Source of the DNA: a virus
Lineage: Duplodnaviria > Heunggongvirae > Uroviricota > Caudoviricetes
Virus record (IMG/VR): IMGVR_UViG_2541047857_000014
Direction: 5' to 3' (one strand)
Length of the DNA stretch: 64,000 bases
The translations under genes were made by a program, and so were the position numbers. The notes beneath the pieces were generated by a model. That model had not been told where the DNA came from. It made no database searches and worked only from the letters and a program-made list of their open reading frames with translations. Below, piece after piece: positions 37,275-39,164 of the stretch (position 1 is the stretch's first letter; each line of letters opens with the position of its first letter).

Positions 37275-39164
37275 ATGAAATCCGAGACGCTAACTGTCCA
37301 ACAACTTTTTCAAGACCGCCGACAATACTGTGTTCCATTCTATCAACGTGCCTATGTATGGACTCAGCAAGACCAGTGGTCAGCTCTACTGGAGGATATC
37401 CTAGAGAAAGTACAATCCCGGCTCTCGGGTACAAAACCAACTCCCCATTTCCTTGGTGCGGTTGTACTGGAACCTCAATCAAAAAAAGGATTATTAGGTG
37501 TAGATTCCATACATATTATTGATGGTCAGCAACGATTGACCACTCTTCAATATGTTCTGGCATCCATCCGATTAGCATTACGTGCTACGGATCTTTCCAG
37601 CTTAGAGGCTCTCATTTCGCCTTGCCTGAAAAACTCAAACGAAGACACAATGCGAAATAAAGAAGTAGAACGCTTCAAACTGTGGCCAACTTTTCGGGAT
37701 CAAACTCATTTTATTCAAAGTTTTAATGTTGAAAATATTGACGATCTCCGGGACGTATTCTCTGATAGTTTCACGCAGCATGGTACGTTGCGTAAGCATT
37801 TTAATCACCCGCCATCACTAGAAGCATTATGTTTTTTTACTGAAGCCTTTATAAAATGGATTAAAATAGAAAACCACTCACCACAAGAAAATGCTGTAGC
37901 TCTAATTGAGGCTGTCTTAACAGATCTGAAACTGGTAAGCATATTTCTCGAAGCTGAAGATGATGCCCAAATAATTTTTGAAACATTAAATGGGCGAGGG
38001 GCGGAACTTCATGCTACGGATCTTATTCGCAACTATATCTTTATGTGCGCTGAGCATGAAAATATTAATGCTATTGAATTATATGAAAATGAGTGGAAGA
38101 GCTTTGAAGATAAATACTGGTCGGAAAAACAACGCCGTGGACGTATTAATAAACCACGCATGGAGTGGCTAGTACATGCGACATTGCAATCAGAAAGGCA
38201 ACGTGAAATTGATCTGTCTCGCCTTTACAATGAGTATCGTGATTATGTAAGTAAGGACTTGTCTTCACAACGAGCAGATCTGCAAGTAAAGCGCCTCAAA
38301 CAATATGCATCACAATATAAAGAATTGGTTGATGGTTTTGGCACAACCCCCATCTCACACTTTGGATATCGCATCGCAGACTATGATGTGACGACACTTT
38401 ATCCGCTTGCTTTGTTCATTTCGATAGCTAACATCGCTGATGATGAGAAAGCAGCCATGTATAATGATCTTGTCTCCTACGTAGTACGAAGAGCCGTATG
38501 TGGCCTGACGCCAAAGAATTACAACAATGTATTTATGAATGTATTGCGGCACTTGGCTAAAACGGAAATTTCCAGTGTTGAGTTACGTAATATCCTCAAT
38601 AACTTAAATGGCGAAGCCTCACGTTGGCCTGGTGACTCAGAATTTCTCAACGCTTGCATCAATGCTCCACTTTATCCTGGCAGGCTCGACGCACCGAAAA
38701 TGCGCTCAATGTTAACGGAACTTGAAAGAGAACTTTGTCGCCAAGTAAAGACAGAAAAGCCTGATGTTCCAAATCTTTCTAATCTCGATATCGATCATCT
38801 TATGCCTCAAAGTTGGTATTCCTGTTGGCCTCTCGAAAATGGTCGTATGGTGACAAATTCAGATGCTACGGTATTGAACCAAATTGTTCTGTCTGGAACC
38901 GATCTTACCCCTGAACAGCTACTGGTAAGGAAACGGCAACAAGCGATATCTACTTTGGGAAATCTAACTTTGCTTAACCTTAGCGTAAACCGTTCTGTTC
39001 AGAATGCTGTATTTCTGAAAAAACGTGATGCTCTCATCGTCCACACCAATCTACGACTGAACATTCCACTTATAGTTAAGGATAAATGGGATGAGGATGA
39101 AATCCTGGAGCGGGGTAAAAAGTTGGGGGAAATTGCATTGAAAGTATGGCCAAAACACGATTAA
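37275..39164 (+). CDS. GmrSD-like type IV restriction endonuclease (DUF262 + DUF1524 His-Me finger); start taken at MKSETLTVQ
   Basis: N-terminal IIDGQQRLTTL (DGQQR motif of DUF262), C-terminal DIDHLMPQSW (DUF1524 HNH-like); ORF in track begins 37215. Confidence 0.75.
   Translation: MKSETLTVQQLFQDRRQYCVPFYQRAYVWTQQDQWSALLEDILEKVQSRLSGTKPTPHFLGAVVLEPQSKKGLLGVDSIHIIDGQQRLTTLQYVLASIRLALRATDLSSLEALISPCLKNSNEDTMRNKEVERFKLWPTFRDQTHFIQSFNVENIDDLRDVFSDSFTQHGTLRKHFNHPPSLEALCFFTEAFIKWIKIENHSPQENAVALIEAVLTDLKLVSIFLEAEDDAQIIFETLNGRGAELHATDLIRNYIFMCAEHENINAIELYENEWKSFEDKYWSEKQRRGRINKPRMEWLVHATLQSERQREIDLSRLYNEYRDYVSKDLSSQRADLQVKRLKQYASQYKELVDGFGTTPISHFGYRIADYDVTTLYPLALFISIANIADDEKAAMYNDLVSYVVRRAVCGLTPKNYNNVFMNVLRHLAKTEISSVELRNILNNLNGEASRWPGDSEFLNACINAPLYPGRLDAPKMRSMLTELERELCRQVKTEKPDVPNLSNLDIDHLMPQSWYSCWPLENGRMVTNSDATVLNQIVLSGTDLTPEQLLVRKRQQAISTLGNLTLLNLSVNRSVQNAVFLKKRDALIVHTNLRLNIPLIVKDKWDEDEILERGKKLGEIALKVWPKHD

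Follow-up and report, generated by a model that had tools for sequence, protein, structure and literature searches.

The UTI89-type gmrSD gene of an Escherichia coli prophage end and its neighbours, the CMoRE gene and an invertible tail-fibre segment

We analysed a stretch of 64,000 nucleotides, here called the window, and found that the gene at 37275-39164 encodes, judged by its sequence, an enzyme that has already been studied and named, and that it is more than merely GmrSD-like. Its product is identical over 629/629 residues to the GmrSD protein of E. coli UTI89 (WP_000834402.1). The gene is very probably the UTI89-type GmrSD allele, which codes for a single-chain type IV enzyme and forms part of the cargo of an SfII/e14-like myovirus prophage, at its tail-fibre end; in ST95-type E. 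coli (S88, UTI89, APEC O1) this prophage is inserted at ssrA. The enzyme and its family were already known, as were its prophage site beside the tail fibres and its action against T-even phages. The present analysis adds a correction concerning the tail-fibre segment, the identification of the neighbouring CMoRE gene, and the description of a conserved junction with a variable slot on its distal side.

The list of open reading frames contains a single long frame at this site, 37215..39164 on the plus strand, in which the start at 37275 gives an uninterrupted protein of 629 aa. The RefSeq coding sequences of S88 and UTI89 begin at exactly this start. The features of the gene and its product are as follows.

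37275..39164, plus strand: gmrSD coding sequence, 629 aa, equal to EcoUTI89GmrSD (the "UT enzyme", UTI89_C2960, WP_000834402.1)
37296..38042, plus strand: GmrSD_N / DUF262 domain, a ParB-like NTP-binding module, aa 8-256 (PF03235)
37521..37535, plus strand: DGQQR motif, aa 83-87, read from the translation
38085..38114, plus strand: residues of the E271-x-E273-x4-E278-x-K280 motif, all present; the motif is defined in Eco94GmrSD
38625..39131, plus strand: GmrSD_C / DUF1524 His-Me finger nuclease domain, aa 451-619 (PF07510)
38787..38840, plus strand: catalytic stretch DIDHLMPQ...N (D507, H508, N522), with DIDHLMPQ at aa 505-512

A Pfam search of the 629-aa protein identified GmrSD_N (PF03235) at aa 8-256 with E=6.8e-34 and 118.2 bits (cutoff 33.2), and GmrSD_C (PF07510) at aa 451-619 with E=3.5e-20 and 72.8 bits (cutoff 23). 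The PADLOC model mREase_IV (PDLC03655) matched with 1415 bits, and GmrSD residues 1-629 aligned with model positions 1-629. These domain and full-length model matches to the GmrSD family exceed chance by far. Both domains are fused in one chain, the length of which falls within the family size of ~600-630 aa. An earlier sequence-only reading of this DNA had described a GmrSD-like single-chain type IV gene of 629 aa on the basis of a DGQQR motif near the N-terminus and a DIDHLMPQ motif near the C-terminus, and had staked this description on a profile search for DUF262 and DUF1524; both motifs are where it had placed them, and both domains were found well above the Pfam cutoffs. The residues E271, E273, E278 and K280 form a motif that was highlighted for Eco94GmrSD (He 2015, PMC4437046, Fig. 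S1, S6). An NCBIfam search returned no model for the 629-aa protein, and the sole match in a PDB sequence search was a distant DUF262 protein, 9JFL, aligned at aa 2-264. A promoter and terminator scan around gmrSD showed nothing above the shuffled expectation, except for a hairpin after a tRNA scar upstream of the gene.

The identity of the gene was also examined at the DNA level and against the published alignment. Compared with the DNA of S88, the gene showed 0 mismatches across 37275-39164. Read by eye and not by program, the UTI89GmrSD row of Fig. S1 in He 2015 (PMC4437046) showed no difference from the window protein. Because the protein is identical to a characterised one, its membership in the family, which had been taken from the start to be a known one, is settled. 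Eco94GmrSD, which is ~93% identical to the UT enzyme, is modification-dependent and ATP-stimulated, and each of the substitutions D507A, H508A and N522A kills its cleavage activity (He 2015, PMC4437046). All three residues, D507, H508 and N522, are present in the window protein with the same numbering as in Eco94GmrSD. The UT enzyme itself has been described as insensitive to IPI*, the inhibitor injected by T4, and T4 was not restricted whether IPI was present or absent (He 2015, PMC4437046; Thomas 2018). It has been credited with the in vivo restriction of T2, T6 and RB69 (He 2015 main text, PMC4437046; Thomas 2018). In none of the conditions tried did purified UTI89_C2960 act on T4, T2 or T6 DNA or on modified oligonucleotides, and the same supplement words the phenotype as a property of the 'E. 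coli UTI89 strain' (He 2015 supplement, PMC4437046). Because the purified protein was inactive in vitro, the nuclease activity of this exact allele rests on the in vivo restriction.

By analogy with the 93%-identical Eco94GmrSD and with CT596, and from what is known of the family members BrxU and SspE, the N-terminal DUF262 (ParB-like) module would bind NTP and govern the recognition of DNA that contains hmC or glycosylated hmC. The C-terminal His-Me finger (D507-H508...N522), if it acts as in Eco94GmrSD and CT596, would cut the recognised DNA with Mg2+ or Mn2+. Host DNA, which is without hmC bases, would be spared as it would be for these two prototypes, and a protective methylase would be unnecessary because host DNA contains neither hmC nor glycosyl-hmC. 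No methyltransferase is found among the annotated neighbours of gmrSD in UTI89 and S88, where the gene stands alone and follows type IV logic; the nearest methyltransferase gene is of the Dam type, lies at 27396-28313 and belongs to a separate P2-like prophage. CMoRE, encoded 1 kb away, is an unrelated GIY-YIG enzyme that likewise attacks 5hmC and glc-5hmC DNA, so that this prophage end would carry two independent anti-T-even nucleases.

The distribution of the gene and the divergence among its alleles were analysed in complete genomes. We found gmrSD in 306 of 5426 complete E. coli genomes, always on the chromosome, and in 300 of them the match covered at least 80% of the query. Among deposited phage genomes there was no nucleotide match, and the only protein matches were two distant ones with 23-25% identity. 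The surrounding 6-kb region matches UTI89 and many ST95-type genomes, and the whole arrangement is shared by ~104 complete genomes. In comparisons with three other alleles, dN/dS was ~0.10-0.33 in every segment of gmrSD, which indicates purifying selection on the gene. The 93.6%-identical TBE6 allele departs from the UT allele mainly in codons 1-160: dS between the two was 0.63 in the first 160 codons and 0.10 in the rest, a ~6-fold difference, while dN/dS was 0.14 in both parts. The TBE6 allele shares many residues with Eco94/CT596 (He 2015 Fig. S1, PMC4437046). This pattern points to codons 1-160 as a recombined segment, older and diverged, in a mosaic gene. Positive selection on these N-terminal codons was considered and rejected: dS is higher at an equal dN/dS (0.14), which argues for recombination and against a burst of positive selection. 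Codons 1-160 are a reasonable candidate for the source of the difference in specificity and inhibitor sensitivity between alleles.

In an ungapped comparison, the whole window corresponds at a constant offset to positions 2798891-2862890 of E. coli S88 (NC_011742.1). The two differ at 674 positions only, 12 of them in 7829-7894 and 660 in 39474-41347; the remaining two are 62954 and 63161. In S88, ssrA lies just left of the window start and is followed by a P2-like prophage that makes up the window from 1 to ~33.4 kb. UTI89 is without the P2-like prophage, and there ssrA directly abuts the same cargo islet. Window position 33446 onward aligns with position 10947 onward of the UTI89 locus, where the end of ssrA is at 10991. 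The stretch from 33.5 to 39.3 kb is the accessory end of the second prophage, a myovirus, which has been called SfII-like and resisted attempts at induction (He 2015, PMC4437046). The order of the genes in the islet is a DpnII/MboI-type nuclease gene, a 97-aa ORF, CMoRE, a tRNA-Pro scar, a dinI-like pseudogene, gmrSD, a pin stub and then the tail-fibre and tail genes. The features other than gmrSD are listed below.

33446..33490, plus strand: 45 nt repeated from the 3' end of ssrA; here the P2-like prophage meets the cargo end of the second prophage
34070..34858, plus strand: gene for a 262-aa protein with a DpnII/MboI-type REase domain (AgaN-like; PF18742, 165 bits), the first islet gene after the ssrA repeat
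35450..36223, minus strand: CMoRE / PD-T4-3, a GIY-YIG type IV enzyme (PADLOC PD-T4-3, 452.8 bits), 1 kb upstream of gmrSD
36384..36430, plus strand: tRNA-Pro (proL-type) 3'-half scar, from the alignment with proL
36441-36468: terminator-like hairpin directly after the tRNA-Pro scar, related to the terminator of the proL locus
36672..36889, plus strand: frameshifted dinI-like pseudogene, downstream of the scar and upstream of gmrSD, as annotated by RefSeq in S88 and UTI89, where the sequence is identical
39266..39388, minus strand: stub of a Pin-family invertase, first ~41-44 codons only (Pfam Resolvase match)
39455..41383, no strand assigned: invertible tail-fibre segment, with inverted repeats at 39455-39469 and 41369-41383

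For the protein encoded at 34070-34858, the PADLOC Aga_Helical-REase match is confined to the C-terminal part, and there is a weak PDB match to EcbAgaN. The tRNA-Pro scar had been recognised previously, and it is indeed a remnant of proL: the scar at 36384-36430 differs from the final ~46 nt of proL by a single mismatch, and the 5' half is degenerate. Window positions 36373-36472 match the annotated tRNA-Pro and its 3' flank at ~88% in nearly all E. coli genomes. No functional tRNA was called at the scar by ARAGORN or Rfam.

On the other side of gmrSD, a tblastn search of the window with PinE of e14 matched aa 1-44 at 95% and gave no other match in the window. S88, UTI89, Res13, TBE6 and c1-17 all have an annotated 'recombinase' with this truncation. 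We compared gmrSD alleles that are ~93-99% identical (99%, 97%, 94%) and that occupy three chromosomal sites, and the gene was always followed by the truncated recombinase and the invertible fibre genes. The distal side of gmrSD varies: it carries CMoRE in the window, the reverse transcriptase of retron Ec67 in TBE6, and different genes again in other genomes. This comparison shows that the junction between gmrSD and the pin stub is conserved and that the distal side is a variable cargo slot. It also upholds the earlier remark that the gene lies in a typical spot for defence cargo, as does the placement of mcrA after pinE in e14. That the gene lies on a prophage immediately after the tail-fibre genes had already been noted by He 2015 (PMC4437046).

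The tail-fibre region itself had been described as degraded by the sequence-only reading. Long ORFs are indeed absent from this part of the window sequence as given, but in S88 and UTI89 the genes are intact: four fibre and assembly genes occupy the place at which the window has short ORFs only. Compared with S88, the mismatches form a sharply bounded block at 39474-41347 (1874 bp) that is free of indels, shows no preference for any codon position and has a ts:tv of 152:318. The block is a Pin-type invertible segment, because the inverted repeats bracket it exactly. The window segment is 65.8% identical to the S88 segment in the forward orientation and 63.8% identical to its reverse complement, while these two are 29.5% identical to each other. 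When each of the 1929 positions was assigned, 699 equalled the forward orientation only, 660 the inverted orientation only, 570 both and 0 neither, and the two orientations alternated base by base. The ORF-free stretch is an artefact, a consensus of mixed orientation, and its simplest cause would be a culture in which about half of the cells had each orientation.

Other origins of this stretch were considered and rejected. Natural decay of the fibre genes does not agree with the sharp edges, the missing indels, the missing codon bias or the ts:tv of 152:318. A simple inversion would not leave the segment only 63.8% identical to inverted and 65.8% to forward S88, and blastn gave no minus-strand match. 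Random substitution in silico is contradicted by the 0/1359 informative positions that differ from both orientations. Foreign replacement was likewise rejected, a megablast search with 39700-41100 having found nothing in 5426 E. coli genomes; the search came back blank because the two orientations are mixed base by base. The small patch at 7829-7894, in which 10/12 changes are transitions, looks natural, in contrast to the fibre block. We infer that the fibre segment still inverts, and TBE6, which appears to have the segment in the opposite orientation, fits continued inversion. Neither the window nor the examined 70 kb of S88 contains another invertase; since the prophage's own pin is a stub, the inverting enzyme would act in trans. 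The case suggests that an ORF-free stretch beside a prophage invertase may have arisen as an artefact when a segment that flips was assembled, and not through gene decay.

The neighbouring CMoRE / PD-T4-3 gene at 35450-36223 on the minus strand had been missed by the sequence-only reading. Its product is identical over 257/257 aa to the CMoRE of APEC O1, which has been crystallised (PDB 9U7U), and UTI89 and S88 carry the same protein. CMoRE is a tetrameric GIY-YIG nuclease whose sensor domain is of a novel kind; it degrades DNA that carries 5hmC or glc-5hmC, its expression blocks T2, T4 and T6, and the APEC O1 allele is weak when driven by the native promoter (Liu 2026). The CMoRE paper does not mention GmrSD (Liu 2026), and the GmrSD papers predate CMoRE. 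The presence of two unrelated nucleases against one phage DNA modification is relevant to host range and to phage therapy against ST95 ExPEC (UTI89, S88, APEC O1).

A wider reading takes the two genes together. GmrSD-UT and CMoRE might form a two-enzyme anti-T-even module at the end of an ST95-type prophage, the individual contributions of which no study has yet told apart; the T-even restriction credited to the UT enzyme could be due in part or entirely to CMoRE, the UT allele may need a cofactor, a partner or another modification (arabinosyl-hmC), and the fibre segment would be inverted in trans. As a whole we consider this reading rather unlikely. A narrower alternative, which we regard as quite improbable, is that the UT allele contributes little alone: much of the T-even restriction would come from CMoRE, or both genes or another host factor would be needed, and GmrSD-UT would be weak, narrow or conditional. 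The inactivity of the purified enzyme in vitro and the statement of the phenotype for the UTI89 strain (He 2015 supplement, PMC4437046) speak for this alternative, as do the CMoRE protein itself, identical in UTI89, S88 and the window and able to restrict T2/T4/T6 when expressed, and the fact that neither literature, the older one on GmrSD and the later one on CMoRE, took the other enzyme into account. However, T4 escapes restriction by the UTI89 strain but not by expressed CMoRE; under its native promoter, the CMoRE allele of APEC O1 is weak; and the strong purifying selection on gmrSD argues for a function. An abstract by Rifat from 2008 is also said to speak of 'a single gene' having IPI* immunity. 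Moreover, it is the UT enzyme itself that Thomas 2018 and, in its main text, He 2015 credit with the phenotype. We keep the reading of the gene as the UTI89-type allele of GmrSD, cargo of the ssrA-integrated prophage, while the phenotype of the UT allele merits re-examination in a background without CMoRE.

Could the gene be a decaying, non-functional remnant at a ragged prophage end? Its neighbours include the truncated pin, the frameshifted dinI-like gene and the tRNA fragment, and attempts to induce the prophage failed (He 2015, PMC4437046). The earlier description of this prophage end as ragged stands as far as pin is concerned, which is reduced to its first 41-44 codons, but the conserved junction speaks against recent decay. 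The junction between gmrSD and the pin stub is kept across alleles at different chromosomal sites, which indicates that the stub is old and stable. In addition, the ORF is intact, at least 80% of the gene is matched in 300 genomes, dN/dS is ~0.14, the catalytic residues are all kept, and the apparent degradation of the fibre genes is an artefact. Decay of gmrSD is thus very unlikely. That gmrSD might instead be a BrxU-like or SspE-like part of a larger BREX or phosphorothioate system, and not a stand-alone gene, is barely credible: BrxU and SspE belong to the same superfamily and the PADLOC models SspE, HEC-06 and Orf5 also match the protein, but these models reach at most 262 bits against 1415, the SspE matches are confined to the N-terminal domain, and no brx, pgl, ssp or dnd gene is annotated within ~12 kb on either side in UTI89 and S88.

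Taken as the UTI89-type GmrSD, the window gene can be compared with several known systems. EcoUTI89GmrSD is the same protein at the same locus, downstream of ssrA and beside tail-fibre genes. There is no difference in the protein, and the window differs only in having, as S88 does, an extra P2-like prophage between ssrA and the locus. Eco94GmrSD and EcoCT596GmrSD, the biochemically characterised prototypes that are inhibited by IPI*, have the same length, the same architecture, the D507-H508-N522 residues and the DGQQR motif, and are likewise positioned after prophage tail fibres. Unlike these prototypes, the UT enzyme is reported to be immune to IPI* and not to restrict T4, and the first 160 codons of the window gene, judged through the TBE6 allele, are diverged. 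BrxU and SspE are also NTP-dependent proteins of two domains, DUF262 and a His-Me finger, although their sequence similarity to the window GmrSD is distant. BrxU is embedded in BREX, whereas gmrSD in the window has no brx or pgl genes within ~12 kb on either side. The SspE models match only aa ~3-122 of the window GmrSD, with at most 58 bits, and no ssp genes are nearby.

In the K-12 prophage e14 the order is stfE, pinE, mcrA, attR. Here a type IV enzyme, McrA, fills the same slot: the invertible stf/tfa segment and pin precede it, and the att site lies beside it. McrA is a small protein of the HNH type, with specificity for 5mC and 5hmC. Annotated as EcoKMcrA with 277 aa, it is set apart by this annotation as a different enzyme from GmrSD, and pinE is intact in e14, whereas pin in the window is cut to a 41-codon stub. 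CMoRE / PD-T4-3 adjoins gmrSD and shares with it the class of target, the 5hmC and glc-5hmC DNA of T-even phages, and the organisation as a single-gene system. The two differ in Pfam content: CMoRE has only a LEM-3-like GIY-YIG domain, whereas the window GmrSD combines GmrSD_N and GmrSD_C.

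A second type IV nuclease, CMoRE, specific for 5hmC and glc-5hmC, is present at the same locus as the GmrSD-like restriction gene gmrSD, and the two genes are 1 kb apart:

35450-36223 (-), CMoRE / PD-T4-3, a GIY-YIG protein with 100% identity to the crystallised CMoRE of APEC O1 (PDB 9U7U)

The GmrSD and CMoRE literature that we examined contained no joint discussion of the two. When the gmrSD allele carried by the window and by Escherichia coli UTI89 was compared with the 93.6%-identical allele of E. coli TBE6, dS was raised about 6-fold in codons 1-160 (37275-37754; 0.63 against 0.10), and dN/dS was equal inside and outside this region. 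The increase in dS at an unchanged dN/dS shows that the N-terminal part of the UTI89 allele is a recombinational mosaic.

To the right of gmrSD lies an invertible tail-fibre segment:

39474-41347, block of mixed orientation
39455-39469 and 41369-41383, flanking inverted repeats

Position-wise comparison with the reference genome S88 showed that the two orientations are mixed base by base in the window, with 699 positions matching the forward orientation only, 660 the inverted orientation only, 570 both and 0 neither. As a result of this mixing, the window lacks four ORFs that S88 and UTI89 both carry intact. The mixed sequence is most likely a consensus artefact originating from a culture that contained both orientations. 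Because the neighbouring Pin-family invertase gene is a stub, such a mixture would imply inversion in trans. A different pattern was seen at 7829-7894, where the P2-like tail fibre gene meets its assembly gene and where the window differs from S88 at 12 positions within 66 bp. The region has 85% similarity to tfaE of the other prophage. Of the 12 changes, 10 are transitions, and the patch therefore seems to have arisen by natural recombination or by gene conversion.

Two features concern the first, P2-like prophage, which is missing from UTI89:

33446-33490 (+), 45-nt copy of the 3' end of ssrA
24959-27399 (-), P2-like replication gene A, which carries an annotated frameshift in S88, where the sequence is identical

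The ssrA repeat marks the junction at which this prophage inserted between ssrA and the end of an older prophage. Given the frameshift in gene A and a window ORF spanning only 25312-27399, the prophage is probably defective. Three further genes were noted in it:

22642-24051 (-), 469-aa protein matching PD-T7-1 in PADLOC (652 bits), without a Pfam domain
12076-13776 (+), 566-aa AIPR-family protein, AbiU-like in PADLOC
32106-33329 (+), 407-aa ORF with neither a Pfam nor a PADLOC match

The first has the portal gene on one side and the replication genes on the other. The AIPR-family gene, which has a low GC content (about 35%) and is inserted on the strand opposite to the surrounding baseplate and morphogenesis genes, is further defence-type cargo. 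The 407-aa ORF, also low in GC (about 31%), immediately follows the integrase, shortly ahead of the ssrA repeat, and is possibly additional uncharacterised cargo.

Two more genes are uncharacterised members of one cargo islet in the second prophage:

34070-34858 (+), 262-aa protein with a DpnII/MboI-type REase domain
34946-35239 (-), adjoining 97-aa ORF, without any match in our searches

The 262-aa protein resembles the nuclease end of AgaN but, unlike these Argonaute-associated proteins, it stands alone.
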